A DNA stretch of 64,000 bases from an uncultured delta proteobacterium (lineage in GTDB: Bacteria > Desulfobacterota > BSN033 > UBA1163): contig CAWHBU010000007.1 of the NCBI GenBank assembly GCA_963827685.1, forward strand, positions 160,001 to 224,000, written 5' to 3'. The notes under the pieces are model-generated. The model searched no databases and was not told where the DNA came from. It worked only from the letters and a program-made list of their open reading frames with translations. The position numbers and the translations under genes were made by a program. Below are positions 19,318 through 38,264 of the stretch, piece after piece (positions within the stretch are counted from its first letter, which is position 1; each line of letters starts with the position of its first letter).

Positions 19318-19788
19318 ATGGCATGGGAATTAACTACTTGGAAGCCCTTTAGGGAGTTGGCCCCTTTTAGGGAATTTGAGAGGATGAGGAGGGATATGGA
19401 CCGGTTTTGGGACTCCTTCTTAGAAGGCGGATTAAGAAGGAAAACCGAGGACGGCGGGGAATGGCTTCCTTCTCTCGATGTCGCCGAGACAAAAAATGAG
19501 CTGGTGGTGAAAGCCGAAGTTCCTGGAATGGACCCCAAAAATATCGATATCTCCCTTTCTGATGGGTTGCTCACCATTAAAGGTGAAAAGAAAGAGGAAA
19601 AAGAAGAAAAAGAGGCCGATTATCACCTTGTCGAGAGAAGTTATGGAGCCTTTACGCGTTCGATTCGCCTTCCTGCGGAAGTGCAGGGCGACAAGATCAA
19701 TGCTTCTTACAAGAACGGTGTTTTGAAAATCACCCTTCCAAAATCTGAGGAAGCCAAGAAGAAAGAAATCAAGATCAAGGTTGAATAA
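19318..19788 (+). CDS. Hsp20/alpha-crystallin small heat shock protein
   Basis: PSLDVAET, AEVPGM, ERSYGAFTRSIRLP, YKNGVLKITLPK. Confidence 0.95.
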   Translation: MAWELTTWKPFRELAPFREFERMRRDMDRFWDSFLEGGLRRKTEDGGEWLPSLDVAETKNELVVKAEVPGMDPKNIDISLSDGLLTIKGEKKEEKEEKEADYHLVERSYGAFTRSIRLPAEVQGDKINASYKNGVLKITLPKSEEAKKKEIKIKVE

Positions 19789-19840: not shown

Positions 19841-20258
19841 CTCAATTTAGCCAACCCTCTTTCCTATCCCCATCCCTTATCCCGAAATCCGCAATCTGCA
19901 TTCTGCAATCTATTATTATACTATCTCCTTATATCCTCATATAAATATCTGTGATCCGCTATGCCCCATGCGCTCTGCGTGCATTTGGAATCGGCCAACT
20001 TTTTTATCGGTGACACTACGATTGCGAACTCAAGGATAATGATTTGACCCCATTCCGCCGTCCCAGCGATGAGTCCTATTCCTTCGAGTCAATCTTGGTC
20101 AATGATTCTTGAGAACGTCAGATGGTCCTAAAAAGGAAAGTAGGTTATAATAGAGGCAAAATATGAGGTGAAAAGCAGAATAAAAGTTGCTTTCAGAACG
20201 ATATACAACCAAATTCCAATCCCCATGATCTCACAGGGACAATTTTGGGGAGCTTAAT

Positions 20259-20441
20259 GTGAAATGCGATCGATGTAACGGGATGATGATTCATGAGGAG
20301 TTTTTCGGTTCAAATGGTCCCTTCTTTAGCTGGCGGTGCTTAATTTGTGGAGAGGTTGTCGATCAGACGATCATAGAAAATCGGGATCATCAGAGCCACG
20401 GCGGGGAGTGGGACAGAAGAGGCAAGAAATCGAAGAGATAA
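20259..20441 (+). CDS. Small Zn-ribbon hypothetical protein
   Basis: CDRCNG...WRCLICGEVVD; GTG start with GGAG upstream. Confidence 0.65.
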   Translation: MKCDRCNGMMIHEEFFGSNGPFFSWRCLICGEVVDQTIIENRDHQSHGGEWDRRGKKSKR

Positions 20442-20564
20442 TCCCATCTCAACCCTCCCAATCATTTTTCCATTAACCCATTAACTCATTTACGCGTTAA
20501 CTCGTCTACGGTTAGGAATGGGCCAACTTTTTTATGGATGCCACCGGCAATTCATTTCTTACTC

Positions 20565-20987
20565 TCATGAAACATACTCCAAAAACTCTTGTGGAGAAAC
20601 AACCTTGCATGAAATTCCATTGGCTTTCAGTTTGTCGTGCGAAATACTAAGCAAGTCCTTGTCTCCTGTGACCAGGAATTCGGCTCCTGTCTCTTTACAC
20701 AAAGAGAGATAATGATCATCCTTGGGATCCCTTGATAAAACCACATGAGTTGAAATAGAAATGTGCTTCGCCAAACTTAACAATTGTTGGATTTTCTCCC
20801 GGAGAAATAGAATTTGGTCATTTGAAAGTTTTTTCGAAAGTCCCAAAATGACTCCTTGGAGCTCTCGTTCGATAGTGTCAGAAAGATAGACCTCATGATC
20901 TTCCAATGCCCGAACAACAGCCTCTAAGGGTTTTCCCCCAAAGGCAGCCGAGATGATTACGTTGGCATCGATAACGACTTTAGCCAT
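20565..20987 (-). CDS. PIN-domain toxin of type II TA pair
   Basis: VVIDANVIISA, RDPKDD, LVTGDKDLL; overlaps antitoxin stop. Confidence 0.88.
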   Translation of the reverse strand: MAKVVIDANVIISAAFGGKPLEAVVRALEDHEVYLSDTIERELQGVILGLSKKLSNDQILFLREKIQQLLSLAKHISISTHVVLSRDPKDDHYLSLCKETGAEFLVTGDKDLLSISHDKLKANGISCKVVSPQEFLEYVS

Positions 20988-21213
20988 AGATTTCCCGCCT
21001 GGCACGGTCGAGGGCTTTGAGGGCTTCCTTTTTTGAGATCCCAGCTTCTGCCAGGACCCTTCCAATTTCAAGAAGGATAATCTCTCCACTGTCTTTCTGG
21101 ACAGGGGTTAGGCGGGCAATCGGTTTCTTACGTTTCATGACAACGATCTCGTTGCCTCCATTTAAATATTTGACCACATCCTGTTTGAACTCCCTGACAC
21201 CTACGAATTTCAT
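20980..21213 (-). CDS. Phd/YefM-like antitoxin
   Basis: MKFVGVREFK...EIVVMKRKKPIARLTP. Confidence 0.8.
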   Translation of the reverse strand: MKFVGVREFKQDVVKYLNGGNEIVVMKRKKPIARLTPVQKDSGEIILLEIGRVLAEAGISKKEALKALDRARREIYG

Positions 21214-21334
21214 TTTCCTCACCTCCGAAAATAATGTTACCACAAATGTGGGAATAATGCAAAAGGTCTTTGATGGAGTGCCTGGAGTGGTGTCGGTCAG
21301 TTTCTACGGAGGCAAGAATCTTTATTGAAAAGTA

Positions 21335-21421
21335 GAAGCACTTAAAAAAGTGTGCTTCCCGGAGAGGTAATTATCATTCCATATTGTGCGCTCGGCAGCG
21401 CACCTTCCGGCCAGTCAGGCG
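21335..21421 (+). repeat. Mini-element family F1, copy 3 (compact variant)
   Basis: GAAGCAC..GTGCTTCCCGGAGAGG...ATATTGTGCGCT-CGGC-AGCGCACCTTCCGGCCA. Confidence 0.65.
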
Positions 21422-21464
21422 TTATGGTTTTTCTTTGAGCTTTCAACTTTAAACTTTGAGCTTT

Positions 21465-21650
21465 ACGCTATGCTCTATGCGCCATGCCCTTTGCGGTTTT
21501 TGTTTTGATGAGCCTTTTTATAGATGATTCATTCTCCCCAACACCGCGTCTCCCTATCTCCTCGTCTCCCAAGCATCTTCTTATTGTCACCCTATCTCCC
21601 TATCTCGCCATCTTTCTTTTGGAGAGGGCCAACTTTCTTATGGATGAGCC
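21465..21650 (+). repeat. About 170-bp direct repeat, copy 1 (copy 2 at 25277-25450), ending in motif A
   Basis: TGCCCTTTGCGGTTTTTGTTTTGATGAGCCTTTT...ATTCTCCCCAACACCGCGTCTCCCTATCT shared. Confidence 0.8.
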
Positions 21651-21723
21651 CGTAGCTTCTGTAGCTTTTGCATAAACCAGACACCCTAAGTCTTCATCCA
21701 ACGACCACCCCCTCCGCCTTCAT

Positions 21724-22116
<393 letters not shown>

Positions 22117-22155
22117 TTAAACTATCAAGTTCTTTTCTCCGAACTCCAGACTTAA

Positions 22156-23466
22156 TTAAAAAGAATATCCTACTTCGCCATGCTGACTGGTATCCAGACC
22201 ACTGATCTCATGCTCTTCACTCACTCTCAAGCCCATGGCCCAATCAAGGACCTTCAATATGATCCATGTTACCACAAAGGAATAAACCCATACTGAAACG
22301 ACGCTGAGTGCCTGAATCCCAATCAGCGAAGGATTGCCAAAGAGTAAGCCGTCATTTCCTGCTGAATTAATTGCCCTTGCTGCAAACAAGCCGGTGGCCA
22401 ATACCCCCCATGTGCTTCCTACTCCATGAACAGCGACGACATCGAGAGAATCATCGTATCCGAATTTGGTCTTCAGGTTGAGGGCATAATAGCATAACAC
22501 ACCCGCAACCAGTCCAATGATGATCGCTGAAATGGGCCCCACGAATCCTGAGGCAGGTGTGATGGTCGCCAGTCCTGCTACGGCACCCGATGCCGCACCA
22601 AGAACGGTTGGGTTACCCCTGTCTGCCCATTCAGCGATCATCCACGAAAGAGCTGCGGAGGCTGCGGAAAATTGAGTCGCTACAAAAGCAGACGTGGCAA
22701 GCGAACCCGATGTTAGGGCACTCCCGCCATTGAAACCAAACCAGCCAAACCAGAGAATCCCTGCACCCAGAAGGGTCATCGTCAGATTGTGAGGAGGCAT
22801 GTCTTCTTTACCGTAACCTTTTCTTTTTCCCACGACCAGAGCCGCCGCTAAGGAGGCAACTCCAGCGCTGATATGGACGACCAGCCCCCCTGCGAAATCA
22901 AGCCCGCCAAGATTTTTGATCCAACCCCCCACTCCCCAGACCCAATGTGCAAGGGGGTCATAGACAAATGTTGACCAGAGGATGAGGAAGACAAGATAGG
23001 TCTTAAATTTAAATCTTTCAGCAAATGCGCCAGTAATCAGGGCGGGTGTGATCACAGCAAACATCATCTGAAAGATCATAAAAGCCTGATGGGGAACTGT
23101 GGCAGAATAGCCAGGGAACGGATCAAGTCCCACACCTCTGAGTCCTATCCAATCAAGATTTCCAATCACATGACCCACATCAGGTCCAAACGCGAGACTG
23201 TATCCGTAGAAAGCCCACTGGATAGTGATCACTCCCAGTGCAATAAAACTTTGCATGATCGTCCCCAGGACATTTTTTGATCTCACCAAACCTCCGTAGA
23301 AAAGGGCAAGCCCAGGCATCATCAACATCACCAGGGCGGCGGAGATGAGAAGCCAGGCAATATCTCCCGAATCCATTTTGGGGAGTGAGGGGGCCGGTGC
23401 CTCGGCAAAAGCAACCCCGGCGATGAACAGGCTCATCAACAACGACAGGAATAGGATTTTTTTCAT
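22156..23466 (-). CDS. amtB: Ammonium transporter
   Basis: PGLALFYGGL, FQMMFA, DFAGGLVVH, WFGWFGFNGGS, DDSLDVVAVHG; start MKKILF after GGAGG. Confidence 0.95.
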   Translation of the reverse strand: MKKILFLSLLMSLFIAGVAFAEAPAPSLPKMDSGDIAWLLISAALVMLMMPGLALFYGGLVRSKNVLGTIMQSFIALGVITIQWAFYGYSLAFGPDVGHVIGNLDWIGLRGVGLDPFPGYSATVPHQAFMIFQMMFAVITPALITGAFAERFKFKTYLVFLILWSTFVYDPLAHWVWGVGGWIKNLGGLDFAGGLVVHISAGVASLAAALVVGKRKGYGKEDMPPHNLTMTLLGAGILWFGWFGFNGGSALTSGSLATSAFVATQFSAASAALSWMIAEWADRGNPTVLGAASGAVAGLATITPASGFVGPISAIIIGLVAGVLCYYALNLKTKFGYDDSLDVVAVHGVGSTWGVLATGLFAARAINSAGNDGLLFGNPSLIGIQALSVVSVWVYSFVVTWIILKVLDWAMGLRVSEEHEISGLDTSQHGEVGYSF

Positions 23467-23555
23467 TACACGCCTCCTATGAAAAATTGCGGAATAAACC
23501 ATCAAATACCTTCCATGCCACCTTATTGTCAAGAGCCCCCGATGTCGCGTATCAA

Positions 23556-25176
23556 CGGGCTGTTGCCCAAATGATACTTGCAACGATTATACATTCGAGC
23601 TATAAGCATGGCAGCACAAATCTGGAATGGAGATATTGCCATGATGGGACAACAGACAGGAATTCAGCCGAAGATCTTCTATCATCATATGAACCTGGAA
23701 CAAAGGATTCCCCGGACACACCTTCTGAGAAGGATTCAAGAGCAGATTGACTTTAACTTCATCTATGCAGAGGTCAGAGACACCTATGGGGGCAACGGGA
23801 ATGTGTCCATTCCCCCTCCTGTAATCCTGAAGATGATGTTGCTGTTAGTTCTTTACAATGTTCGATCGGAACGAGAGTTAATGGAAACGATCCCCATGCG
23901 TTTAGACTGGCTATGGTTTTTAGGGTACGACATAGACAGTGAGGTGCCGGATCACAGTGTTTTGAGTAAAGCCAGGGCGCGGTGGGGAGTGGAAGCGTTT
24001 AGGGGGTTCTTTGAGCGAATGGTGTGGCAATGTGTGGAGGCGGGGTTAGTGGACGGCAGAAAGATCTTTGTGGATTCGAGCCTGGTGGATGCGGATGCAT
24101 CGAACAACTCCGTGATCGACACGCGATCGTTGAAGGTTCAACTCCAGGAGGGCTACAAGAAGCTGGAAGCACGATTAGAGGAAAAGAGCGAGAGCACGGA
24201 TTCCTCCAGGAGATACGTTAAAGAGAACAGCCGATACATTTCAACGACCGATCCGGATGCATCGATAGTGAATCGTGGCAAGCCCAAACTCTCCTATCAG
24301 GTTCATCGGGCAGTGGATGAGCGGAGTGAAGTGATCACGGCGATCGAAACGACAACAGGAGATGTCAATGAAGCGCATGAGATGATTCCTCTGATAGAGA
24401 GCCACCGTTTAAATACAGGGATCAATGCGGATACGGTGGTGGCCGACAGCAAATACGGGACGATCGAGAACTTTTTGGCCTGTCATGATAGAGGAGTAGA
24501 GGCCCACATGCCGGACTTGAGGGAAATTTCATTGAAGCGTACAGAAAAGCAGAATATCTTTGGGGAAGAGCGGTTTGAGTATGATCGGGAGAGTGACACC
24601 TATCGTTGTCCGGCTGGGCATCGGTTGAAGCCTAGATCATTACATATGAGTCGGCAAAGTAGAGATTACGCTGCACCCAAGAAGATTTGTGCAGCATGTG
24701 ACTTAAGAGAGCAGTGTACTAGAAACAGATCAGGTCGGACAATTAAGCGACATCTGAGGCAGGAAGATCTAGACAGGATGCGAGAAGCGAGTCGATCGGC
24801 CAAAGCGAAGCGGGATATCAAAGTGAGGCAGCATTTGATGGAGCGTTCCTATGCCAGAGGGACGCGGTATGGATATGACCGGGCACGATGGAGAGGGCTT
24901 TGGCGGGTGCAGATACAGGAATACCTGATCTCTGCTGTCCAGAACATTGAGGTTTTGCTTAGGTACGGATCTTACCTAAAGAGAAGTCCATCGGTGATGA
25001 TGGAGCAGATCAAAGGGGCTGTGACAAGGGAGATAAGGTCCTTTTCAGATTTTAAGGAGCTAATGAACTCAAAAATTGGCCGAATGGTGCTATTTGGTTT
25101 TACTTACCCTCGGCTATCATTCATGGAAACTCAAACTGTCAGATATTTTTGAATTGGGCTTTTGAGCAACAGCCCG
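23556..25176 (+). mobile_element. IS1182-family insertion sequence, complete, 4-bp TSD TCAA
   Basis: TIRs CGGGCTGTTGCCCAAA / TTTGAGCAACAGCCCG; TCAA at 23552-23555 and 25177-25180. Confidence 0.88.
23641..25152 (+). CDS. IS1182-family transposase
   Basis: HLLRRI, VPDHSVLS, FVDSS, STTDPDA, ADSKYG, CPAG...CxxC...C, MERSYA. Confidence 0.9.
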   Translation: MMGQQTGIQPKIFYHHMNLEQRIPRTHLLRRIQEQIDFNFIYAEVRDTYGGNGNVSIPPPVILKMMLLLVLYNVRSERELMETIPMRLDWLWFLGYDIDSEVPDHSVLSKARARWGVEAFRGFFERMVWQCVEAGLVDGRKIFVDSSLVDADASNNSVIDTRSLKVQLQEGYKKLEARLEEKSESTDSSRRYVKENSRYISTTDPDASIVNRGKPKLSYQVHRAVDERSEVITAIETTTGDVNEAHEMIPLIESHRLNTGINADTVVADSKYGTIENFLACHDRGVEAHMPDLREISLKRTEKQNIFGEERFEYDRESDTYRCPAGHRLKPRSLHMSRQSRDYAAPKKICAACDLREQCTRNRSGRTIKRHLRQEDLDRMREASRSAKAKRDIKVRQHLMERSYARGTRYGYDRARWRGLWRVQIQEYLISAVQNIEVLLRYGSYLKRSPSVMMEQIKGAVTREIRSFSDFKELMNSKIGRMVLFGFTYPRLSFMETQTVRYF

Positions 25177-25276
25177 TCAAGATCAGGCACCTATGCGAGG
25201 CAAAACCTGGAGGAAAATTGTCCCGTGTCAAGGGGCTGACCCCAGGCCACATTCCTAAATTCCTTTTATCACTCCT

Positions 25277-25450
25277 TACGCTATGCGCTTTGCCCTTTGC
25301 GGTTTTTGTTTTGATGAGCCTTTTCATGGATGATTTATTCTCCCCAACACCGCGTCTCCCTATCTTCCCATCATCTTCTTATTGTCTCCCTATCCCCTCA
25401 TCTCCCCATCTTCATTTTAATGGGAATGGGCCAACTTTTTTGTGGATGAG
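25277..25450 (+). repeat. About 170-bp direct repeat, copy 2
   Basis: Matches 21465-21650. Confidence 0.8.
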
Positions 25451-25591
25451 AATCGTATTCGCTCTGCGATTTTGACGTTCAAATTGGGGTTCTAAACCTG
25501 AAATCAGCCTCCTTTTTTTAGAAATGACTAATTCGATCAGGCGGCTAACTTTGTCCGATCCCAGCCCCGCCTACTTAAGTTGTTTTAGAAC

Positions 25592-26797
25592 CTACGTTAT
25601 ATATTCTTTTAGGTGAAGGGTCCCCTCCGTTTCGGGCCATTTCCCATCTCCTTTGCGTCCCCTTGTTTGAGCAGTTAGAATCTCTCGGCCGAAATGATCT
25701 CGCAGCCATTTTTTCAAGCCCGGAATCTCTTCCATCTCTCTTATCGACCGGGGATTTTTCAAAGCGAGACCATTGATCAAGGCGTTGTTCAAAAGGATTC
25801 CAGGCTCCATCCCTAAGTTTTTTGCCCGCATATCCCGCCAGGTTTTTAGTGCTTTGACCCTTTTGCGTAAGAGGGGTGACAAATCCGGCTTTGCCTCCCG
25901 GGGGTACACCGGAAGATCTTCATCGGGAATGGCCATGGCCCGGTGAATTTCCTGCAGCAGGCGTGTCCCATATCTGTCGATTTGCTTCCGGCTCAGGACT
26001 TTTCCCGTTTCCAATTCTTCAAGGCGCAAAGGTTTTTTCATGGCCAATTCCAGGAGGGGTTCGTTGCGGAGCACCTTGAAGGGGGGAAGATCCGACTTCT
26101 GGGCCTGGGCCTCTCGGAATTCCAGCAAAGCCTCCAGAACCGCAAGACTCCTGGGATCCAGGAGAAAAGCCCCTTTCACTTTTAGGTAAAGCGGGTCATG
26201 GCTGGGGAGAGTGAATCGGACCTTACTCAGAAATAGGCATTCTTCCTCCATCCAGGATAATCGGCTCTTCTCTTCCAGTTCCTTTTCCAGCATACGGGCT
26301 AAGGGAATCAGGTACATGCCGTCCATCGCTGCGTATTCCACCATCTCCGGGGAAAGGGGTCTTTGGGACCAATCGGCCCGCTGATATTTCTTATTCAGCT
26401 CCACATGGACCCGACTTCGCAGCAACGCTTCCAGGCCGCTCTCCCGGAGGCCCAGAAATTTACAGGCCAACTGTGTATCGAAGAGGTTCTCGACCTCGAG
26501 CCGAAAGTCCCGGTACAGGGAACGGATATCATAATCCGCCCCGTGGAATACTTTGCGGATGCGGGGATTGGAGAAAACGGGGTGTAAAGCGGAAAGATCC
26601 CTTAGCGCCAAAGGATCAATGACATAAGAGGCGGATTCCGTAGCGATCTGTATGAGGCATACCTTTTCGAAGTAGTGGTACAAAGAGTCCGCTTCCAGGT
26701 CAACCCCGATGATTTTGGCCTGACCCAGAATCCGGGCAGCCCCTTCCAATTGCGGAAGGGTCTCGATCCATTCATAGGAAAATTTATTTCCATCCAT
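25592..26797 (-). CDS. rnd: Ribonuclease D (DEDDy exonuclease + HRDC domains)
   Basis: GVDLEAD, CLIQI, FHGADYD, FDTQLA, ADWSQRPL, YAAMD. Confidence 0.9.
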   Translation of the reverse strand: MDGNKFSYEWIETLPQLEGAARILGQAKIIGVDLEADSLYHYFEKVCLIQIATESASYVIDPLALRDLSALHPVFSNPRIRKVFHGADYDIRSLYRDFRLEVENLFDTQLACKFLGLRESGLEALLRSRVHVELNKKYQRADWSQRPLSPEMVEYAAMDGMYLIPLARMLEKELEEKSRLSWMEEECLFLSKVRFTLPSHDPLYLKVKGAFLLDPRSLAVLEALLEFREAQAQKSDLPPFKVLRNEPLLELAMKKPLRLEELETGKVLSRKQIDRYGTRLLQEIHRAMAIPDEDLPVYPREAKPDLSPLLRKRVKALKTWRDMRAKNLGMEPGILLNNALINGLALKNPRSIREMEEIPGLKKWLRDHFGREILTAQTRGRKGDGKWPETEGTLHLKEYIT

Positions 26798-26909
26798 CCT
26801 CTTACGCGCCTTCTTCCATCATGGTTTTGGTCTTACCGCTCTACTGTGAGGCCCGCCTCCATTTATTTAAATAATCTTGTTAATTTTTGCGGGCCTGACC
26901 CCACATTCC

Positions 26910-27101
26910 TTACAGTATTTTTTTAACCCGACCAATTTCACCACTTTCCAAGCGGACTTTAATACCATGGGGGTGAGTAGGAGATTTCGTCAGAATGTCT
27001 TTCACTATACCTTCGGTTAGCTTCCCAGAATGCTGGTCTTTCTTTAATACAATTAAAACCTGTAAGCCTGCTTTCACATCTGCACGATTTGTACCGTCCA
27101 T
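26910..27101 (-). CDS. YwbE-family (DUF2196) small protein
   Basis: IVLKKDQHSGKLTEGIVKDILTKSPTHPHGIKVRLESGEIGRV. Confidence 0.85.
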   Translation of the reverse strand: MDGTNRADVKAGLQVLIVLKKDQHSGKLTEGIVKDILTKSPTHPHGIKVRLESGEIGRVKKIL

Positions 27102-27357
27102 GCTTCCACTTTCATTAAAAACTATTTTAACCTCAAATTTGCAGCCCTAAGCCCCAAATTGCCTATATTTTTCTCCAAGAAATTTACCAATGGAAAAAAT
27201 GGAGATTTGACCCCTATCCTTCCTGACGCCATGCCCCAAGCTCCATGCGCCATGCAGTGTATTAATCGAATTGGGCCAACTTTTTTATGGATGACACCTC
27301 TTGACTGCACGCTCTGCACGAACGTCCCTATAGTTTTTCTGACACCGAAGCTTTTTT

Positions 27358-28071
27358 TTAATATAATCTATCCTGGATATTGTCAATCAGCTTATTAAAA
27401 TAATTTGGCACTTTGGTTTCAAAAGTCATCTGCTCGCCGCTGGTGGGGTGTTTGAAAGAAATCGATTTGGAATGAAGCGCTAAACGCCTGTACCCATTCT
27501 TGGTTTTACCATATTTACGATCGCCTACGATCGGATGTCCCTTATCAGCCATATGTACGCGTATCTGATTCTTCCTGCCGGTCAAGAGATTAATCTCCAG
27601 CAGACTAAACTGCTTGGTCTCTTTAAGCACCTTATAAGCAGTATGTGCCAGTTTGCCTTTTGTGACATCCGTTGTGGAATAGACGACATAAGCCTTGTTC
27701 TCAGACAGGTATGAGGTAATAATTCCCTCTTTTTGGGCCAACTGACCATAAACCACCGCAACATATTTCTTTTCCGTGCCTTTCCACTGAGCCTGCAAAT
27801 GGTACTTAACTTCTTCGCTTTTTGCAAATATCAGTACGCCGGATGTCCACTGGTCCAGCCTATGAACAATGAAAATTCGGTTTCGCGACTTTAGAGAGCC
27901 TTTGCGTACATAATCGGTTAGAATGTAGTAAGCCGTCTTGAATTTATTAGTCTCCGTCCCCACTGTCAATAGCCCCGCAGGCTTATCTACCACCAAGATA
28001 TCTCTATCTTCGTAGAGTATTTCTAACCCTCTTGGCAGATGTTTGCTGGTCGAACGTTTTTTCTTAAGCAT
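27358..28071 (-). CDS. RluA-family pseudouridine synthase, copy 1
   Basis: VDKPAGLL, VHRLD..TSG, TGRKNQIRVH, HPIVGDRKYG. Confidence 0.92.
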   Translation of the reverse strand: MLKKKRSTSKHLPRGLEILYEDRDILVVDKPAGLLTVGTETNKFKTAYYILTDYVRKGSLKSRNRIFIVHRLDQWTSGVLIFAKSEEVKYHLQAQWKGTEKKYVAVVYGQLAQKEGIITSYLSENKAYVVYSTTDVTKGKLAHTAYKVLKETKQFSLLEINLLTGRKNQIRVHMADKGHPIVGDRKYGKTKNGYRRLALHSKSISFKHPTSGEQMTFETKVPNYFNKLIDNIQDRLY

Positions 28072-28304
28072 ACTGAGTACTCTTCTATCTTGTGCAAGTT
28101 TACTTGTGCAGGTTATAGCCTATTGCCACATTGCTATCGAGTCACAAAGCATGAGGAGTAATAAAGGGGACGGTTCTATTTATTTAGATTCTTTTGCAAT
28201 ATTGCAAGCCTGACCCCACATTCTTACATCATCTTCACTTTTTATGGATGACACCACTAATCTATTATGTAGATTAAATCGATGATTTGTGATATTATTA
28301 ATTT

Positions 28305-28508
28305 GTGAACAGGAAGCCTTTGATTCAAGCAAATCCTTATCTAAAAGATCCTGCAAACCGGCAAAGACTACTCTCCATAGCGGTTTCTTCTTCTACAGCC
28401 ATTGAAGGAATTCATAGAGTATTGCCAGAAGCTATCCGTTTTCGTCCCATAGCAGCCAAATCCGTTATACTTCGTGAACCCGTCGTGTCCTACGGATCAC
28501 GGCGCTGA
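28305..28508 (+). CDS. Small hypothetical protein
   Basis: KPLIQANPYLKDP...SSSTAIEGI; sits between motif A copies. Confidence 0.5.
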   Translation: MNRKPLIQANPYLKDPANRQRLLSIAVSSSTAIEGIHRVLPEAIRFRPIAAKSVILREPVVSYGSRR

Positions 28509-28660
28509 AGACTCTCTCCATGGGCTTATAGTCTCGATCCAAAGCCGATGCATCATGATGTCCACCCTTTTTCATTATGAATCATCTTTCTCCGCTGTTG
28601 TCTCATTTTCCCCCGCGTTCCGAATTCCGCACTCCACATTCCGAAATCCGCAATTGGAGC

Positions 28661-28769
28661 GGCCAACTTTTTTATGGATGACCTAAATCCCTTTTAAGAT
28701 TCTTATAATTTTATGGACGCCCCCTCTGATCTCTATCAAGCAAAGTGTATAATGTAGCTTTGACCCCAA
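28661..28769 (+). repeat. Gene-less A-to-B unit, duplicated at 30374-30482
   Basis: Near-identical about 109-bp sequence from GGCCAAC to TTTGACCCCAA. Confidence 0.85.
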
Positions 28770-28808
28770 AGCCCCGCCACATAGTTTTTCTGACACCGAA
28801 GCTTTTTT

Positions 28809-29522
28809 CTAATATAATCTACCCTGGATATTATCAATCAGCTTATTAAAATAATTTGGCACTTTGGTTTCAAAAGTCATCTGCTCGCCGCTGGTGGGGT
28901 GTTTGAAGGAAATCGATTTGGAATGAAGCGCTAAACGCCTGTACCCATCCTTGGTTTTACCATATTTACGATCGCCTACGATCGGATGTCCCTTATCAGC
29001 CATATGTACACGTATCTGATTCTTCCTGCCGGTCAAAAGATTAATCTCCAGCAGACTAAACTGCTTGGTCTCTTTAAGCACCTTATAAACAGTATGTGCC
29101 AGTTTGCCTTTTGTGACATCAGTTGTGGAATAGACGACATAAGCCTTGTTCTCAGACAGGTATGAGGTAATCATTCCCTCTTTTTGGGCCAACTGACCAT
29201 AAACCACCGCAACATATTTCTTTTCCGTGTCTTTCCACTGAGCCTGCAAATGTAACTTAACTTCTTCGCTTTTTGCAAATATCAGTACGCCGGATGTCCA
29301 CTGGTCCAGCCTATGAACAATGAAAATTCGGTTTCGCGACTTTAGACAGCCTTTGCGTACATAATCGGTTAGAATGTAGTAAGCCGTCTTGAATTTATTA
29401 GTCTCCGTCCCCACTGTCAATAGCCCCGCAGGCTTATCTACCACCAAGATATCTCTATCTTCGTAGAGTATTTCTAACCCTCTTGGCAGATGTTTGCTGG
29501 TCGAATGTTTTTTCTTAAGCAT
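28809..29522 (-). CDS. RluA-family pseudouridine synthase, copy 2
   Basis: Same motifs; 8 aa differences from copy 1 by manual comparison. Confidence 0.92.
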   Translation of the reverse strand: MLKKKHSTSKHLPRGLEILYEDRDILVVDKPAGLLTVGTETNKFKTAYYILTDYVRKGCLKSRNRIFIVHRLDQWTSGVLIFAKSEEVKLHLQAQWKDTEKKYVAVVYGQLAQKEGMITSYLSENKAYVVYSTTDVTKGKLAHTVYKVLKETKQFSLLEINLLTGRKNQIRVHMADKGHPIVGDRKYGKTKDGYRRLALHSKSISFKHPTSGEQMTFETKVPNYFNKLIDNIQGRLY

Positions 29523-29664
29523 ACTGAGTACTCTTCTATCTTGTGCAAGTTTACTTGTGCAGGTTATAGCCTATTGCCACATTGCTATCGAGTCACAAAG
29601 CATGAGGAGTAATAAAGGGGACGGTTCTATTTATTAAGATTCTTTTGTAATATTGCAAGCCTGA

Positions 29665-29930
29665 TTCCAGATCTTGTTGAGCTTTTAGCCCCGTTTCCTT
29701 TTCCTCCATGAGTTGAGAGCAGAGATTGGAGCAGGAAGTAAAAGAACTATAGCCACAAATGGCGCTGCCTACGAAAGGCCTTTGATAAAAGCATTTGCAG
29801 CCATACTTTGAAAAGCAATCGACGGCAATATGAATCTTAGGAACAAAAATGCAATGCCGGACACTAAAACACTTACCCACCAGGGGCATTCAACAAGTAA
29901 ATTGAGTATAGATTCATCTTTTCGCGCCAT
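29665..29930 (-). pseudogene. Truncated membrane-anchored protein resembling N-terminus of Mrr-like restriction endonucleases
   Basis: MARKDESILNLLVECPWWVSV...GLS*AAPFVAIVLLLPAPISALNSWRKRK; internal TAG; cut off at the RluA copy 2 boundary. Confidence 0.55.
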
Positions 29931-29996
29931 CAACTGCCTCTCAATTTCTAAACATTGAGACGTACACCTAGTTTTTAAGAACTTGACTGAAAAATG

Positions 29997-30149
29997 GAAG
30001 CACCTAAGAGAATTGTGCTCCCCGGAAAGGGTCACCCCGTTAGAAATTCCAGTCGTTACGACTCCAAACAGAGCGGGGCATTATTTCTAACGGGGTAAAT
30101 ATCTTTTCATATTGTGCGCCCGGCAGCGCACTTGCCGCCCAGTCAGGCG
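29997..30149 (+). repeat. Mini-element family F1, copy 4, with nested CCCCGTTAGAAAT element (30034-30096)
   Basis: GAAGCAC..GTGCTCCCCGGAAAGG [insert] ATATTGTGCGC..GCGCACTTGCCGCCCAGTCAGGCG; tail shared with copy 3. Confidence 0.65.
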
Positions 30150-30373
30150 CTTTGCATCTCTTGACTACAAAATTCAGTCAACGACTACTCAACGATTCTA
30201 AGACTCAATGACCCAATGACCGATTTATTCTTGATGCCGTACCCCCTACCCTTTCTGCGCTGCCCTCGCGCAAAATCATCGAGCAGTTTCTTTCTTCAAT
30301 CTGAAATCTGCAAACTGAAATCGCGACTCAGCATAAATTCCGCATTCGGCAATTCGCATTCCGCAATGGAATA

Positions 30374-30482
30374 GGCCAACTTTTTTGTGGATGACCTAAA
30401 TCCCTTTTAAGATTCTTATAATTTTATGGACGCCCCCTCTGATCTCTATCAAGCAAAGTGTATAATGTAGCTTTGACCCCAA
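30374..30482 (+). repeat. Gene-less A-to-B unit, copy 2
   Basis: Matches 28661-28769. Confidence 0.85.
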
Positions 30483-30606
30483 GGTCCCCTCCAATAGCCT
30501 ATTGACTCATCGCCCGAATTACCGGCCAACTTTTTTACGGATGACACCAGAGATCAATTTCTAAAAGCTTAACTTGTTGAATGTTGCGAAGTCCTTTTTG
30601 GTTAGC

Positions 30607-31404
30607 CTATTGGATCTTTTTTACTCTTTCCACTATTTTGGGCAGGATGTCTCCGGTTTTTCCTTGAATGAGATAATCTGAAATTCTTCTAGTCAAAGGA
30701 GTGGGCTCGGCATTTACTTCAACGATGATTGTGCCCGGATTAGCTATCTGTGGTAAACTGGCAAAAGGATAAACGACAGCCGAGGTCCCACAAATTAGCA
30801 TTAAATCGCATTTCCAAGCCTCTCTTTGACTTCCTTCAAGAACGTCACTTGGAATGGGTTCCCCGAAGGAAACGACATCACCTTTGATCACTCCTCCACA
30901 TTGGCAATAAGGAGGAAGCTTCCCCTCCATTCTAATTTTCTCTAAACTGAGTTCATCTTTGCTGAACCTTCTATTACATACGACACACCTTAACTTATTA
31001 ATGCCTCCATGGTACTCAATCGTTTTCTTGCTCCCTGCCTTTTCATGTAATCCATCTATATTTTGGGTAATGACGCATTTTAATATTCCCATTTTCTCGA
31101 GTTCGGCTAAAGCGTCATGTCCAGGATTAGGTTGAAACTTTCCAATCTCCCCAAGAATTGAGAAGAGCCTCGACACAGAGCTCTGAGGGTCCAGTCTTTC
31201 TTCCCAATATCTTGTTGGATTCGCCTTGAATTGCTCATAGACTTCATACGCCTTCATTTCAGCTTCAGGATTTTTGGTCCAAATTCCGTCTGGGCCACGG
31301 AAATCAGGGATTCCCGATTCGGTTGAAATCCCAGCACCGGTTAAAGCTATCCCGTATCTCGCCTTGATTAAATCTTGGGCTGCCCTTTGTATTAAATCTT
31401 CCAT
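30607..31404 (-). CDS. cobB: Sir2-family NAD-dependent protein deacylase
   Basis: TGAGISTESGIPDFRG, TQNIDGLH, YHG, CxxC...CxC, GTSAVVYP. Confidence 0.9.
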   Translation of the reverse strand: MEDLIQRAAQDLIKARYGIALTGAGISTESGIPDFRGPDGIWTKNPEAEMKAYEVYEQFKANPTRYWEERLDPQSSVSRLFSILGEIGKFQPNPGHDALAELEKMGILKCVITQNIDGLHEKAGSKKTIEYHGGINKLRCVVCNRRFSKDELSLEKIRMEGKLPPYCQCGGVIKGDVVSFGEPIPSDVLEGSQREAWKCDLMLICGTSAVVYPFASLPQIANPGTIIVEVNAEPTPLTRRISDYLIQGKTGDILPKIVERVKKIQ

Positions 31405-31663
31405 CTCCTATCTCCTCATCCAGCAATTTGAGCATATTTGAAAAACTAACTTGTTGAACGTTGCGGCCTGCCCCCGAAGTCTTCGCATTTTTATAGATGA
31501 TACCGGTTTGCGATAGGTCTATTTCTTAAATAACTTAACTACGTCCCCGAGGTCCGTCACTGATCTTTCGCGTCAACAAATAAGTCAACAAAAAAATAAG
31601 GACCCCTGCTATCACTGCGATGAGGGCAATAGTGTTACTTTCTATTTTTTTTCTTGAAGAAAT

Positions 31664-32308
31664 CTAAGGCCGCCATACATTGATAGGCTTCAATGCAGCA
31701 TATAGATCTTCCGTGAAAAGTCTATCCGACTCACTGGCGTCCGCGGCGCCGGATGGGTGATTGTGCGCCATGATCACCATGCTTGCGTTCGCCTGCAACG
31801 CCCGCGCCACAATCAATCGGATCTGTGGCCTGGCTTGGTCAACCGACCCGACAGCAAGCAAAGCGTCTTCAAGTAAAGTCCCGCGCCGATTCAGGAACAA
31901 AGCCCTAAAATGCTCCTCGGGAAGTCCCTGTAATCGTGATTGCAGGTATTCCGCAGCTGCATGTGTATTCTTTAGTGACAGCCGATATCGCACATCTGGG
32001 AGTGATATGCGCCGGCCAATCTCCATGGCCGCCGCCAACTGCGCTGCCTTTGCAGCTTTCAAACCCCTAACTTCCAGTAGGGCCGAAAGCGGAATCCCAG
32101 CCACTGCTCGGAGGGAACCAAATCTCCTAAGGATTTGCCGCGCCAATTCAACGGCACTCGTACCCTTGACGCCCACGCGGAGAAGGATCGCCACAAGTTC
32201 AGCGTCTGTCAAAGCTTGCGCCCCTTGGCGTAACAGCCGCTCCCGTGGCCGTTCATTCTCCGGCCAAGCCACAATGCCTTTTGACTTATTTTTTGCTAAT
32301 TTAGACAT
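31664..32308 (-). CDS. radC: RadC/JAB-domain protein, C-terminus apparently truncated
   Basis: ERPRERL, LTDAELVAILLR, AHNHPSG...SESD; ends before the usual LDHII strand. Confidence 0.8.
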   Translation of the reverse strand: MSKLAKNKSKGIVAWPENERPRERLLRQGAQALTDAELVAILLRVGVKGTSAVELARQILRRFGSLRAVAGIPLSALLEVRGLKAAKAAQLAAAMEIGRRISLPDVRYRLSLKNTHAAAEYLQSRLQGLPEEHFRALFLNRRGTLLEDALLAVGSVDQARPQIRLIVARALQANASMVIMAHNHPSGAADASESDRLFTEDLYAALKPINVWRP

Positions 32309-32494
32309 TTCAACTTGCCTGTAGGGGTCCGGGGGACGTTGTTCAATTCTTTCACTAATTTTCCCTTCGGATATCTCATCCACCCTCACCCTCTTTACCG
32401 TAAGGCGCAAGGCGTAAGTCATAAGACGCAAACAACAAAAAAGCCCATTCTTTTTTAGAACAGGCTTAAGTTTGACGCAAAATCAGTGCCCATA

Positions 32495-32875
32495 TTATTC
32501 CAACCCGATAGGCAAATTCCTATATCTGGCAGATGTCTCATCAATCGTGACGACGACCCCTTCTTCTAACTCCTTCTCCATAGTGGATACGACTTCAATA
32601 ATACGAGATGTAACAAGATCAGGTCTTGGATTCTCAAGACGAAGGTTTATGAGGCTTGGCTTTCCATATCCGCTTAATGCCAAGATTGCAGAAAAATCAA
32701 GATCTTGTGTAATGACTACCTTGTTTTGCTGTTGTGCATAGATAAGAATGTCTATGTCTTTGCTCCCTCTGTCCATTACCTCGGAAACCCGAACAATATT
32801 CCACCCGTTTTTTCTCAACTGTTCAACGGTCAAAGGAGAGATATTCATATCGGTGAGGAATTCAAGCCTAGGCAC
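32495..32875 (-). CDS. DUF5615 PIN-like toxin
   Basis: FLTDMNIS, DIDIL, VITQDLDF; overlaps DUF433 gene. Confidence 0.85.
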   Translation of the reverse strand: MPRLEFLTDMNISPLTVEQLRKNGWNIVRVSEVMDRGSKDIDILIYAQQQNKVVITQDLDFSAILALSGYGKPSLINLRLENPRPDLVTSRIIEVVSTMEKELEEGVVVTIDETSARYRNLPIGLE

Positions 32876-33113
32876 CTGCGACTCCTTTTATTGGAATCGG
32901 TTTTGCCTTCTCTGAAGAGAGCCAAGCCGCGTACTTTAAGGCTTGAACGACGTCCTCTTCTTCAAGTTCTGGATAAACCTTCAAAATTTCTCGCGTTGTC
33001 ATCCCACTGGCAACGAGTTTGAGGATAACTGAAACGGTTATCCTCATTCCTCGAATAGTGGGTTGCCCGAGGCAAACCTCTGGATCAATGGTTATCCGAT
33101 CGAGTTCTTTCAT
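32868..33113 (-). CDS. DUF433 antitoxin
   Basis: RITIDPEVCLGQPTIRGMRITV...YPELEEEDV. Confidence 0.9.
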   Translation of the reverse strand: MKELDRITIDPEVCLGQPTIRGMRITVSVILKLVASGMTTREILKVYPELEEEDVVQALKYAAWLSSEKAKPIPIKGVAGA

Positions 33114-33312
33114 AGGTTTAATCTCCTAATCTTTTTGTTATTATATACACCAAATTACAAAAAATAGAAATAACAATGCAGGATAGGAGCGAAATCTCAT
33201 TCCCCCTCACCTTTCAATTGCTACCAACTTCTCGTATAGAGCATAGCGCAGAGCGCATAGCGTTGGCTCTCGATCGCAAGCGTAAAGCGCAAGGCGTAAG
33301 CCGTAAGACACA

Positions 33313-33486
33313 AAAACAAAAAAGCCCATTCCATTAATACCGTGATTCGTGGCCCCCTCAACCCACCGGGGCCGAAAACGGCGTGTTCCGTGTCCGTAAA
33401 TCATTGAAAAACAAAAAGCCCATCCCATTAATACAGTGATTCGTGACCCCCTCTACTCACTGGGGCCGAAGACGGCGTGATTCGTG
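33313..33486 (+). repeat. Tandem duplication of about 95-bp unit beginning with motif C (AAAACAAAAAGCCCATTCC)
   Basis: Units at 33313 and 33408 share CCATTAATAC.GTGATTCGTG.CCCCCTC...GGGGCCGAA.ACGGCGTG. Motif C also occurs at 32434 and 34151. Confidence 0.75.
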
Positions 33487-33526
33487 AATCGCAAATAAAA
33501 CCAAAACGCAAGACATGAGGTAACAC

Positions 33527-34081
33527 CTAACTTTTCCTCTTCATTTTTGTGACATAAGGAACTTTAGGCTCTTCTACCAGAAAACCTATTCGTTTCTTTG
33601 GCGGTTCGGGCTCTGGCGGTGCCATTAACTGGCGGATAGCATCGAAAACTATTTTGAACTGGGCATCGTATTTCTTTTCCAGGGCATCCAGCCTCCTGGC
33701 CAAATCTGTGTGCTGTGATATAATCTCCCGGAGTTTTGCAAAGGTCCGCATGATCTGGATATTGACCTGCACAGCCCTGGGACTGTTCAAAACACTGGAT
33801 AGCATGGCCACACCGTGCTCTGTAAAGGCATAAGGGAGTGCCCCGCCAAAATACTTCTTGTGTGGTATCACATTTTGTGATACCAAGCGCTCCGCCTCAG
33901 CACTATTAAGCTGAAACATAAAATCTTCAGGAAACCTACTGATATTTCTCTTGACTGCCTGATTTAACACCCTTGTTTCAACCTCATAGAGTTCAGCCAA
34001 GTGCGTACTTAACATAACCTTTTGCCCACGAATCAATAAAATTCGCCGCTCAATGACCCCTAAAGGAACAAGTGTCTCCAC
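33527..34081 (-). CDS. ORF6N-domain DNA-binding protein
   Basis: [46 protein letters not shown]. Confidence 0.9.
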
Positions 34082-34169
34082 TTAGCCACCTCGAGGATAT
34101 CACAAATTGTGATCACCTTTAGCTTATCAAATATCTAAGGCCATACCAGGAAAACAAAAAGCCCACTTC

Positions 34170-34573
34170 CACTCCACAATTGAACCGGCAATTTTCTGCT
34201 TGGTTTTAACCGTCAATAATTGCCATTGTTTCTTGTTCTGCAGAACAGCAGTCAATTGTGGAGCTGCTGCCTCCACAATCTATGGATAGGTTAAGTAGAA
34301 TTGCCGGTACCTGTAAAGTTCACGACGATCACACCGGGAAAGACCAAGTTTCCTGAGAGTTTCGGAAAGATCATCCATGAGCCTTTCACCCTATTTGGCA
34401 CGATCCACTCCTAAACGCTCATATCGTTCAATGTAATAGCCGATAGCCCAGTTTCTCAGCGTCAGGCTGATATTGACCGCTTTGCTTGCTTGAGCCGAAA
34501 AAAGATCATGGGCCTTCCGTATAGATAAGACCAATTCGGCAAAAGTTAAATTTGTTTTCTTCTGCGTGCTCAT
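34170..34573 (-). pseudogene. DUF1016/YhcG-like nuclease N-terminal fragment
   Basis: AVNISLTLRNWAIGYYI...RAK*GERL...LYRYRQFYLTYP*IV; two TAG stops; truncated at motif C. Confidence 0.7.
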
Positions 34574-34863
34574 AAATATTCTGCTTTCAGCTTGGTTTTG
34601 CATTCAGGACAGCAGAACGTGTTTTCGTTTACCTTTATAAAACGCAGCCCAGTATCCTTAACGGCATGGTCCTTCTTATGATAGGTAAACAGGCTGCCAT
34701 CAAAGGCAACGTCTTCTATCAAGCCGCAGGTACATTCCAGTAATTCTCTATCATGAGTGAATAGACCGATTGCTTCTGCCTGTTCTTTTACCTTCACAAG
34801 CCTTCTTACCAATGGCTTCAGGTCGGACAGGGAGGAACCATCATCATGGGTTTTTTCACTCAT
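34570..34863 (-). CDS. Hypothetical Cys-containing protein
   Basis: RELLECTCGLIEDV...FCCPEC; overlaps next start (ATGA). Confidence 0.6.
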   Translation of the reverse strand: MSEKTHDDGSSLSDLKPLVRRLVKVKEQAEAIGLFTHDRELLECTCGLIEDVAFDGSLFTYHKKDHAVKDTGLRFIKVNENTFCCPECKTKLKAEYL

Positions 34864-34961
34864 TCCTTCACCTCCAGCCTCACAAGTGGAACAGGGACGG
34901 TGGTTCTAAAACAACTTAGGTCCGAGGGACCAGGTCGAATTCTGTCACTTGTTTTTCCCTT

Positions 34962-35150
34962 TCAGAAGCCTCGTTCCCCATCACCTTTCAATTGTTCCGG
35001 AGTGCGCTCCTGTAACCACAGCTTGCAGACATTCTTCCAACCTATCCTGCGCCATTTTTTAAAAACCGCCTTCAACTCGTTCAAGTCGTTTGCTTCCAGA
35101 AGATCTCTCTGGGCAGCTTTAAAATCTTCAAGAGATGCAATGGCCGGCAT
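34962..35150 (-). CDS. Small hypothetical protein
   Basis: GAGG RBS; helical 62 aa FKKWRRIGWKNVCKLWL. Confidence 0.6.
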   Translation of the reverse strand: MPAIASLEDFKAAQRDLLEANDLNELKAVFKKWRRIGWKNVCKLWLQERTPEQLKGDGERGF

Positions 35151-35182
35151 GGTCTACCTCAAAATACCGCAGAGCGCATAGC

Positions 35183-35444
35183 GCATAGCGTAAATTCTTT
35201 ATCGTGAGGCGCGAGGCGTAAGTCGTAGAAGGGAAAGAATTTAAAAAGTACAATTCCAAACCTTGTTCAACGAAGCCAGCGCTCGATCGGCGTTTTCAAA
35301 AATTCCCCCACTGGAATTCCTTGCTCTCCGACCAAGAGCTGACGTTTTACCCGAAAGGCTTTCGATAAGGCTTCCATCCCGAGAAGACGGCCCACCGTAT
35401 AACAAATTACTCAATATGCTGAGTATTATTACTCAACGTAATTA
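35183..35444. repeat. About 270-bp direct repeat copy 1 (interrupted at its end by IS630)
   Basis: Matches 37952-38223; remaining bases resume at 36550-36561. Confidence 0.85.
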
Positions 35445-36549: not shown

Positions 36550-36565
36550 TAGTAAATTAAGTACC

Positions 36566-38223: not shown

Positions 38224-38264
38224 CAACGGTTTTTTTCCAAAAAGAAGCATTCTCTATAGTGTAT

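Follow-up and report, generated by a model that had tools for sequence, protein, structure and literature searches.

A short asymmetric sequence of 25 bp, here called motif A, punctuates an array of unrelated accessory genes in the genome of an uncultured delta proteobacterium of the Syntrophales, and all of its copies in the array point in one direction, independently of the orientation of the genes beside them. The array lies in a stretch of 64,000 nucleotides of contig CAWHBU010000007.1 (assembly GCA_963827685.1), which is called the window throughout and corresponds to C7:160001-224000 in our numbering, where G000 is the analysed genome (5.23 Mb, 14 contigs named C1, C2 and so on), the other G numbers are genomes of relatives and the L numbers are fetched loci or stretches. 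Our preferred explanation, which is held tentatively and somewhat short of even confidence, is that such arrays are integron-like in their architecture without being integrons, and that motif A would be the site of a sequence-specific enzyme encoded elsewhere.

A site acting at the level of DNA is suggested by the strict polarity of the motif irrespective of genes, by the near-invariance of 21-25 bp across genera, by its confinement to a few arrays and by the reassortment of the sequences on both of its sides. Since half of the resolved insertions or deletions (indels) break in other repeats and no enzyme could be linked to motif A, two competing explanations, mosaic repeats and a cis-acting element, stay live. 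That A is a recombination site, where the crossover would take place and that an enzyme acts on it are points which we infer.

Motif A forms arrays of one polarity

Written on the gene strand, which is the minus strand of the window, where the genes mostly lie, motif A reads GGTG-TCATCCATAAAAAAGTTGGCC. The 25-mer by which the earlier note on this DNA had described it has six matches in the window with at most three mismatches, all of them on the + strand, and none in 100 shuffles; the 21-mer core has eight sites, and a profile search adds a partial copy (Table 1). The motif is confined to 19.9-30.6 kb (8-10 copies between 19.99 and 30.55 kb) and keeps to one strand throughout, in good agreement with the roughly ten one-strand copies, restricted to 19.9-31.5 kb, that had been noticed by eye.

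With three mismatches allowed, the whole genome has 41 copies, most of which belong to four clusters (C1 260.6-266.0 kb, C4 503.3-536.1 kb, C5 55.4-70.2 kb and C7 180.0-190.6 kb, the last being that of the window), with about eight singletons outside them. It was clearly demonstrated that neighbouring copies within 12 kb of each other are co-oriented, as this was the case in 31 of 31 pairs, while random placement of 41 sites gave 3.5 same-strand pairs on average and 11 at most in 2000 trials; the clustering for which the earlier note had proposed a genome-wide scan is real, and it goes together with a single orientation.

The conservation profile of 196 unique copies has sharp edges: positions 0-20 hold 1.3-2.0 bits each, the GGTG preceding the core 0.6-0.9 bits, and the flanking sequence beyond almost none, with less than 0.6 bits. 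At the 156 sites with enough flanking sequence the gene upstream of A lies on the strand of A in 124 cases and on the opposite one in 32, and the gene downstream in 113 and 42 cases, respectively; the median distance is 84 nt from the stop codon to A and 225 nt from A to the next start. The motif keeps the direction of the array beside the + strand open reading frame (ORF) at the left end of the window array, and in the C4 array its direction is unchanged around a block of opposite-strand ORFs, recognized by eye only as an ABC-transporter-like operon (A copies at 510.3 and 519.2 kb). The polarity of motif A is independent of the orientation of the neighbouring genes. Additionally, A-forward coincides with the G-rich strand of the surroundings in four of four arrays, which fits the general orientation of genes and equally a mechanism acting on one template strand, four arrays being too few to discriminate between the two.

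Distribution of motif A among genomes and metagenomes

When genomes were scanned with at most two mismatches and with the reversed pattern as a control, motif A was present in 14 of 14 genomes of the genus and in 20 of 24 genomes of the family, and it was absent from all 16 genomes taken from other families of the class and phylum; the control pattern gave 0 matches. In the relatives, too, the copies stand in one-strand runs along the contigs. An exact 20-mer of A, with one genome counted per species, was found in 85 genome stretches, nearly all of them from metagenome-assembled genomes labelled Thermodesulfobacteriota, Syntrophales, Syntrophaceae or 'delta proteobacterium', and exact copies occur in at least 120 metagenome stretches, with 0 matches in viral contigs and in plasmid and phage collections. 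Motif A is conserved over at least four genera, and the carriers of its arrays are an abundant group of anaerobes from wetland, peat and sediment. Exact copies were also seen in bins labelled Chloroflexia, Gammaproteobacteria, Anaerolineae, Nitrospiraceae and Pseudomonadota (L045, L067, L072, L077 and others); these may be mis-binned contigs of Syntrophales or may reflect transfer beyond the family.

A lineage-specific island and the exchange of modules

The locus of the window array was compared with the orthologous locus of eight relatives, in which the flank with aminotransferase, superoxide dismutase and hsp20 genes and the U32 flank are syntenic. In six of the eight the hsp20 and U32 flanks are 4 nt to 4.8 kb apart, in the other two different DNA follows hsp20, and none of the eight hsp20/U32 stretches holds motif A. 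Because the island is missing at this locus of the relatives, the 18.6-kb island (about 19.9-38.45 kb) is specific to this lineage, and the alignment of the hsp20-to-U32 interval, which had been suggested as a check, shows it to be strain- or species-specific.

The modules themselves recur in other places. A 13.6-kb contig of the relative G011 carries an A-array in which a PIN pair (84% identity) and glnK-amtB (96-98%) match the modules of the window in the same order, glnK-amtB being again trailed by motif A. Beside them in G011 stands a YtfJ-like module which is 92% identical to a module of the C4 array in G000, and a further module matches the C1 array of G000 at 92%. The homology of the YtfJ pair begins about 28 nt before the start codon, runs through the gene to the end of motif A and stops there. 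Modules are common to different arrays and genomes, in different order; among them are toxin-antitoxin pairs, pieces without an ORF, and genes for amtB-glnK, rluA, RNase D and sirtuin that are second copies. Next to the G011 array the core genes reach only 76-86% identity with G000, and glpK 90%; the shared modules (84-98%) are thus at least as similar as the core, often more so. Furthermore, the glnK-amtB of the window array (21724-23583) is a second copy of a chromosomal pair at C2:1158634-1160405, with 78% identity, whereas its 96-98% match stands in a different species of the genus.

Motif B is the end of another element

The earlier note had considered a second motif, B, as the opposite end of the same cassettes. 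Its copies are indeed present on one strand within the window, at 26875, 28190 and 29641 and also at 28217 and 29668, with TTTGACCCC-type copies at 27216, 28769 and 30482. Genome-wide, its core GGGGTCAGGTCTTGCAAT has 40 matches in both orientations (22 + and 18 -), often as inverted doublets about 80-130 nt apart, for instance on C4 and C6 and in L257 (3508-3532 / 3610-3634). At C4:98146-99093 (L257 546-1494) a Y1_Tnp (HUH) protein of 283 aa with a C-terminal helix-turn-helix (HTH) is encoded between inverted GGGGTCAGGTCTT ends, the arms of which (L257 546-573 / 1467-1494) have 28 nt and are 89% complementary, and the Y1_Tnp gene of the metagenome contig L158 is likewise flanked by inverted B ends. 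Because a Y1_Tnp+HTH gene is flanked by inverted B copies both on C4 and in a metagenome contig, motif B is the inverted end of a Y1(HUH)+HTH transposon or a RAYT-like element, and the doublets are miniature derivatives of it; a flanked Y1_Tnp gene and dispersed copies with doublets, two of the features by which REP/RAYT or Y1 ends are recognized, are both present. The family has up to 11 matches per genome in relatives, which argues for a transposon over a single-copy domesticated RAYT.

A and B consequently do not bound a common cassette: B is a transposon end in its own right, or the end of a miniature inverted-repeat transposable element (MITE), which occurs in both orientations in the genome, and B-like sequences also serve as targets of an insertion sequence (IS), the IS1182-like element. 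The link between GGGG(T)CA-type ends and Y1/HUH genes named in the earlier note is real here for motif B, with its Y1_Tnp+HTH gene between inverted GGGGTCAGGTCTT ends; no enzyme could be tied to motif A. Inverted doublets of about 125 nt of the GGGGTCAGGTCTT-type end were also observed near the Y1-HTH gene and elsewhere, and a Shedu-like fragment and a DUF2513 gene adjoin there.

Breakpoints and tails at motif A

According to the scheme which we prefer, motif A would be cut and joined by a sequence-specific enzyme encoded elsewhere, different from the integron integrase with its folded attC substrate. Modules would be gained beside an A already in place and would each supply or restore an A, so that arrays would grow by accretion in one polarity and modules would move between arrays and species. 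The junctions would afterwards be scrambled when the companion repeats (heptamer tails, B-type ends and other short modules) undergo homologous recombination or slippage. The site-directed capture and accretion of genes supposed in the earlier note is upheld as far as the polar array and the mobility of the modules are concerned; the breakpoints do not always fall at the motifs, and the enzyme could not be linked to A. A number of observations weigh against the scheme, namely the asymmetry of A, which has no dyad symmetry, unlike most recombinase core sites, part of the breakpoints, the behaviour of the tails and, as described in the next section, the outcome of the search for an enzyme.

Six indels between genomes could be resolved. 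In the first one a 5-kb block begins exactly after A, at its 3' edge, and in the second one a 78-nt tail unit begins 5 nt after the 3' edge. The third, a 1-kb block, is bounded by B-type GGGK|CAAAG repeats, the fourth, of 4.2 kb, breaks within similar heptamer tails, and the fifth, of 2.2 kb, breaks within another repeat module, CTGAC..GCGCTGCC; the sixth has no motif at the break. The earlier note had asked whether gains and losses of cargo break exactly at the motifs; two of the six do so at or near A, and three breaks inside other repeats are of the kind expected from homologous recombination. At either edge of A, contigs of further metagenomes depart from the window, with loose ends at 27298, 27301 and 28683 and joints at 27273-27276 and 28660-28667; most of the joints have sides shorter than 30 letters and may stem from repeats of other organisms, and they are a weak sign of A with other flanks. 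The four sequencing runs consist of short assembled contigs, and from their cover nothing is concluded on absence, level or strand.

The sequences upstream of A fall into 12 families and the downstream 'tails' into 8, and the two combine freely. The tails are short runs of imperfect tandem repeats of 7-8 nt on the gene strand, present in all arrays, with units such as GCGGAAT, GCGCATA, GGGAGAT and GAGTTAA; in the window they are at 19860-19990, 21440-21620, 25270-25420, 28590-28660 and 30290-30370. Tail families are common to several genomes. Core variants of A show a weak association with the family of the tail (p 0.0075 and 0.03) but none with that of the upstream sequence, so that A together with its tail may form a single small element and not purely a site of crossover. 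A search among small indels for an insertion of 'A plus tail' with target duplication gave one case, without a clean duplication. The singleton A at glpK belongs to a 337-nt insertion relative to G009, which is composed of A, a tail and unique DNA, is not repeated elsewhere as a unit and has a possible 8-bp direct repeat. By eye, this insertion also contains a sigma-70-like promoter.

These data bring into play the strongest competing explanation, in which motif A belongs to mosaic intergenic repeats shaped by homologous recombination (RecA-type, or slippage after DNA uptake), A with its tail, the B ends and the further short modules being non-autonomous repeats of the BOX, NIME or REP kind accumulated in accessory islands, and no A-specific enzyme being involved. 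We regard it as possible, with a real if minor chance of being correct. It would account for the indels that break in repeats other than A, for the small number of tail families across genomes (three have 57, 39 and 12 members), for the correlation of core variants with the tail, and for the lack of a recombinase linked to A. It also agrees with the 78-nt tail unit, which has its own degenerate A-like end and is present in one metagenome contig and absent from another, and with the spacer after A next to glnK and PIN, where the neighbouring modules are the same in G000 and G011 and the spacers, of about 130 and about 400 nt, are wholly unrelated. What it leaves unexplained is the near-invariance of 21-25 bp across genera in the midst of such turnover, the confinement of A to few arrays in contrast to the dispersed B doublets, and the strict polarity even beside inverted genes; moreover, neither a terminal inverted repeat nor a clear target duplication (apart from the possible 8-bp repeat at glpK) was found.

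Search for a possible enzyme acting on motif A

The 211 loci (1.09 Mb) around exact copies of A contain a single tyrosine recombinase, the IntI of G011, and neither a recombinase nor a transposase recurs among them; one reverse transcriptase and two IS1182-like transposases are also there. Clustering of the ORFs around A, in 95 and then in 211 loci, placed only toxin-antitoxin genes and cargo at the top, and the ends of the four G000 arrays have no gene in common. That no recombinase is in view near the window array, as stated before, was borne out. Elsewhere G000 carries XerC, XerD, several phage-type and IS-borne tyrosine recombinases and many DDE elements; neither a serine recombinase nor a Tn3 transposase was found in it, nor an IS91-type Y2 gene, for which the control genomes were equally silent. 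None of four phage-type integrase loci is near a copy of A.

The Y1-HTH protein is the only enzyme that we can name as a candidate, and the case for it is weak. It is named because a forward B-type end stands 20-70 nt upstream of about one fifth of the A copies (within 80 nt upstream of 73 of 402 unique copies, against one with a reverse end). The phyletic test rejected it as an A-specific enzyme, since the Y1-HTH family occurs in 36 of 41 relatives, among them genomes of other taxonomic families and three of the four genomes of this family that lack A. It is possible, if doubtful, that the Syntrophales family has a second, integron-independent cassette system with a 25-bp unstructured asymmetric site and an enzyme away from the arrays, perhaps a HUH Y1-HTH protein working on the lagging-strand template or an unrecognised recombinase, by which polar arrays of genes and operons would be exchanged between species.

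Several other candidates were tried and discarded. An IS200-type Y1 element of 546 nt, with 18 identical copies and 3 of a second type, has GC-rich subterminal hairpins (e.g. C1:267551-268097) that are unrelated to A or B; it is recently active in appearance, and one copy is located 1.6 kb from the C1 array. The idea of a reverse transcriptase, prompted by the constant 3' end and the simple-repeat tail, was given up because the lone gene of this kind (C4:393178-394272) is far from the arrays. In the metagenome contig L193 a group II intron (166-2043) precedes a copy of A by about 90 nt, but introns of this kind are not consistently related to A. A candidate dif site, GTGTCTGATAA-GATATA-TTATGTTAACT, is located at C2:737718-737745, exactly where the GC skew changes its sign (+0.062 before, -0.061 after); A matches its left arm in 6 of 11 positions and its right arm in 4 of 11, the common outer bases being only GTGTC, and A was rejected as a Xer site. 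Finally, a reading of A or B as a sigma-54 or sigma-70 promoter suffers from a misfit in spacing, judged by eye, and a promoter scan gave 30 sites against 28.7 in shuffles.

Other explanations

Motif A might be, although this is unlikely, a polar cis-acting site that a host protein or RNA would bind on the DNA or on a read-through transcript (a terminator substitute, an insulator, a processing or silencer-nucleation site or a replication-polar site), which would make accessory modules tolerable or expressible, the arrays simply reflecting the accumulation of modules. The typical place of A, soon after a stop codon and ahead of the next start, would suit this, as would the conservation, which is that expected of a monomeric binding site, the location of A on the G-rich strand and the unstructured nature of the A-bearing stretches. 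On the gene strand, hairpin terminators between genes are missing from the A half of the island, and the neighbouring half has canonical ones (e.g. 32467-32441). An element of the 3'-UTR of the upstream gene would, however, not keep the polarity of the array beside opposite-strand genes, as A does at 20% of the sites; A also closes elements without any ORF, and Rfam gave 0 matches at E up to 1 in the window between 15 and 40 kb and only the group II intron (in L193) among L193, L019 and L092.

It is very improbable that motif A is the terminal repeat of an IS or MITE family. The first seven bases of A, GGTGTCA, are also those of the ends of the Y1-HTH element and of the B family, and G000 is rich in IS elements; nevertheless, the arrays contain no inverted copy of A, with all 31 pairs co-oriented, no transposase abuts A in the 211 loci (RAYT-like genes, in six of them, are flanked by B and not by A), the glpK insertion of about 337 nt is not a repeated unit, and plasmid, phage and viral collections gave no match. 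The possibility named in advance as fatal for a capture system, that A is simply the terminal repeat of a known IS family, did not materialize.

The chance that the arrays are ordinary integron arrays without integrase (clusters of attC sites lacking integrases, CALIN), with A as the conserved R'-L' half of a divergent attC, is next to negligible. An integron attC is an imperfect palindrome whose R'' (RYYYAAC) and R' (GTTRRRY) cores are 45-140 nt apart and which folds as a single strand. The GTTGGCC end of A is one base from the GTTRRRY core, at least two co-oriented sites part unrelated cassettes here as in integrons, and the toxin-antitoxin cargo is typical of chromosomal integrons. Yet a complementary GGCCAAC partner within 150 nt was found, at up to one mismatch, at only 1 of 32 sites upstream and 2 of 32 downstream (17% in random 150-nt windows), and a scan for R''/R' palindromes (RYYYAAC...GTTRRRY) gave 0 in the window, 0 in the G011 array (L019) and 0 genome-wide, while it recovered as a positive control a textbook 58-nt attC beside a full-length intI in G013 (L020:18553-18610). 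Nine A-bearing stretches fold on either strand no better than shuffles (z -0.56 to +1.60), against a z of about -6 for both strands of the G013 attC, in line with the earlier statement that these motifs are not attC sites. With the model TIGR02249 the integron integrase of G000 was found to be a C-terminal fragment (C3:782913-783335, 141 aa, 191 bits, model positions 197-315) among housekeeping genes on another contig than the array, and IntI was near A in only 1 of 211 loci. Full-length IntI is present in 12 of 41 relatives and does not track motif A; in G011 the A-array does start 5.6 kb from intI, but the two are convergent and core genes lie between them. Both the classical integron and the IS-end explanations of motif A are close to excluded.

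Features of the window island

The coordinates of the island and of its parts are collected in Table 1. The unrelated cargo noticed between the motifs (PIN, amtB-glnK, rnd, two rluA, a sirtuin) was confirmed by Pfam, which recognized hsp20, PIN, P-II/glnK, an ammonium transporter, an IS transposase, DUF2196, two PseudoU_synth_2 and SIR2 domains and the U32 flank, and resolved the RNase D-like gene into a 3'-5' exonuclease and HRDC.

Table 1. Features of the accessory island in the window (positions in nt unless given in kb)
Feature	Position	Strand	Remarks
Accessory island	19900-38450		Between hsp20 (19318-19788, +) and the U32 peptidase gene (38566-39822, +)
Left half of the island, A-array	19.9-31.6 kb		The only half punctuated by motif A
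Right half of the island	31.6-38.4 kb		RadC, toxin-antitoxin pairs, ORF6N, IS, AbiEii-like pair (Pfam); ordinary hairpin terminators
Motif A, degenerate	19993-20013	-	2 mismatches to the 21-mer; end of the array beside hsp20
Zinc-ribbon-like ORF, 60 aa	20259-20441	+	Between two A copies, against the polarity of the array; no Pfam match
Motif A	20521-20541	-	24 nt past the stop of the PIN gene (20565-21089, -)
Motif A	21627-21647	-	77 nt past glnK (21724-22062, -)
amtB	22156-23583	-	One module with glnK
IS1182/IS5-like insertion sequence	23552-25176	+	Transposase 23578-25152 (Pfam)
Motif A	25429-25449	-	143 nt past the RNase D-like gene (25592-26797, -)
Motif A, exact	27274-27294	-	64 nt past rluA copy 1 (27358-28071, -); upstream of DUF2196 (26910-27101, -)
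rluA module, copy 1	27330-28213	-	Duplicated at 28781-29664
Motif B, GGGGTCAGGCTTGCAAT on the gene strand	28190-28223	-	Upstream of rluA copy 1; sister copies 26875-26908 and 29641-29674
Motif A, partial	28239-28258	-	Without the GTTGGCC end; found by profile search
Motif A, exact core	28661-28681	-	Closes an ORF-less element of about 110 nt (28661-28771)
Motif A	30374-30394	-	Closes a second ORF-less element of about 110 nt
Motif A	30524-30544	-	63 nt past the SIR2 gene (30607-31404, -)

The rluA module is duplicated over 884 nt with 98% identity, with differing DNA on both sides of the two copies; the unit extends from within a B-type motif to 28 nt past the stop codon. An inverted pair at 25566-25597 / 34897-34928 is 81% complementary. 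The related ends reported earlier at the junctions do exist in these two cases, and they belong to further repeat families. The ORF-less element of about 110 nt begins with a B-type GGGGTCAAAGC head and ends in motif A, and it has further copies at 30374-30486 and on C1, C4 and C5.

The IS1182-like element, of which G000 has at least 13 near-identical genomic copies, was inserted into a B-like sequence with a TTGA target duplication. Its insertion is polymorphic, the empty site being present in G011 and in the metagenome runs X1 and X4, with a single contig from each (joint 23551->25177), and it is no part of the design of the array.

Some side observations concern other parts of the island. 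A contig of the RNA run X15 covers 20213-20446, over the zinc-ribbon-like ORF; the strand is not given by the contig. At 30034-30083 there is an element of about 50 nt with CCCCGTTAGAAAT inverted ends, found at about 15 other places of the genome, which represents a small repeat family in the spacers of arrays. In the right half a 1.1-kb repeat (35440-36553), which has 12 copies genome-wide with more than 99% identity and a 299-aa ORF without Pfam match, is possibly an IS not yet characterised; a direct repeat of 281 nt (35164-35444 / 37933-38213, 95%) flanks it and also brackets the AbiEii-like/HTH pair.

Comparison with known systems

The dif modules of Acinetobacter plasmids are accessory and toxin-antitoxin modules located between Xer sites and moved by the XerC/XerD of the host (PMC6449649, PMC13141974, PMC7399989). 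They resemble the A-arrays in the small accessory and toxin-antitoxin modules, the short conserved site between them and the recombinase encoded elsewhere. Unlike A, their sites, of 28 bp (11-6-11), resemble the dif of the host, especially in the XerD arm; A shares only the outer GTGTC with the left arm of the candidate dif and does not fit the right arm. The sites of dif modules alternate in orientation, while those of A are all direct.

Motif B alone is comparable to repetitive extragenic palindromic (REP) sequences with their RAYT, and to REPINs, as its Y1 gene lies between inverted repeat copies and its inverted doublets are dispersed in both orientations. The differences are the C-terminal HTH of the B-associated Y1 protein and its several copies per genome in relatives; motif A is not involved.

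The intergenic mosaic elements of Neisseria are short blocks bounded by a repeat of about 20 bp and are thought to promote recombination exchange (PMC1797815, PMC3898611). The two cases are alike in that short modules with a conserved repeat at their borders form mosaic arrays downstream of genes. The repeats of Neisseria are of the inverted-repeat type, serve also as prophage targets and occur chromosome-wide, and they do not part whole gene modules in polar arrays.

For an asymmetric site of a tyrosine recombinase, such as A would be, the sfx sites of the shufflon recombinase Rci are a precedent, since only the spacer and one arm are conserved in them. Shufflon sites are inverted, are located within the 3' end of one gene beside rci and yield inversions, not accretion.

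To our knowledge, no well-understood system other than integrons accumulates cassettes of single genes in polar arrays. A literature search on integron-like cassettes and direct repeats in Syntrophales gave nothing relevant to the lineage, the exact motif not being searchable as words. The A-arrays resemble chromosomal integrons and CALINs in the polar arrangement of unrelated, mostly co-oriented modules, each with a conserved site of constant polarity behind it, in the toxin-antitoxin cargo, the ORF-less units, the occasional inverted units and the modules recurring between arrays and genomes, and in having no recombinase inside the array. They are different in the site, as A is a 25-bp unstructured non-palindrome and attC an imperfect palindrome of 57-141 nt with R''/R' cores, and in the integrase, which is truncated in G000 and does not track A. 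Furthermore, several A modules have apparent promoters of their own (by eye) or are whole operons (amtB-glnK and, by eye, the ABC-transporter-like block).

If a dedicated enzyme acts on motif A, genes would be captured here by a route not described before, and a further sequence-specific tool for DNA would be at hand; if there is none, the arrays would be a clear case of a short conserved repeat organising accessory DNA through ordinary recombination. Either way, motif A is a ready marker for finding such islands. It should be emphasized that the detection tools in use look for folded attC sites, to which arrays of motif A, with the same architecture and similar cargo as integron arrays, would be invisible.

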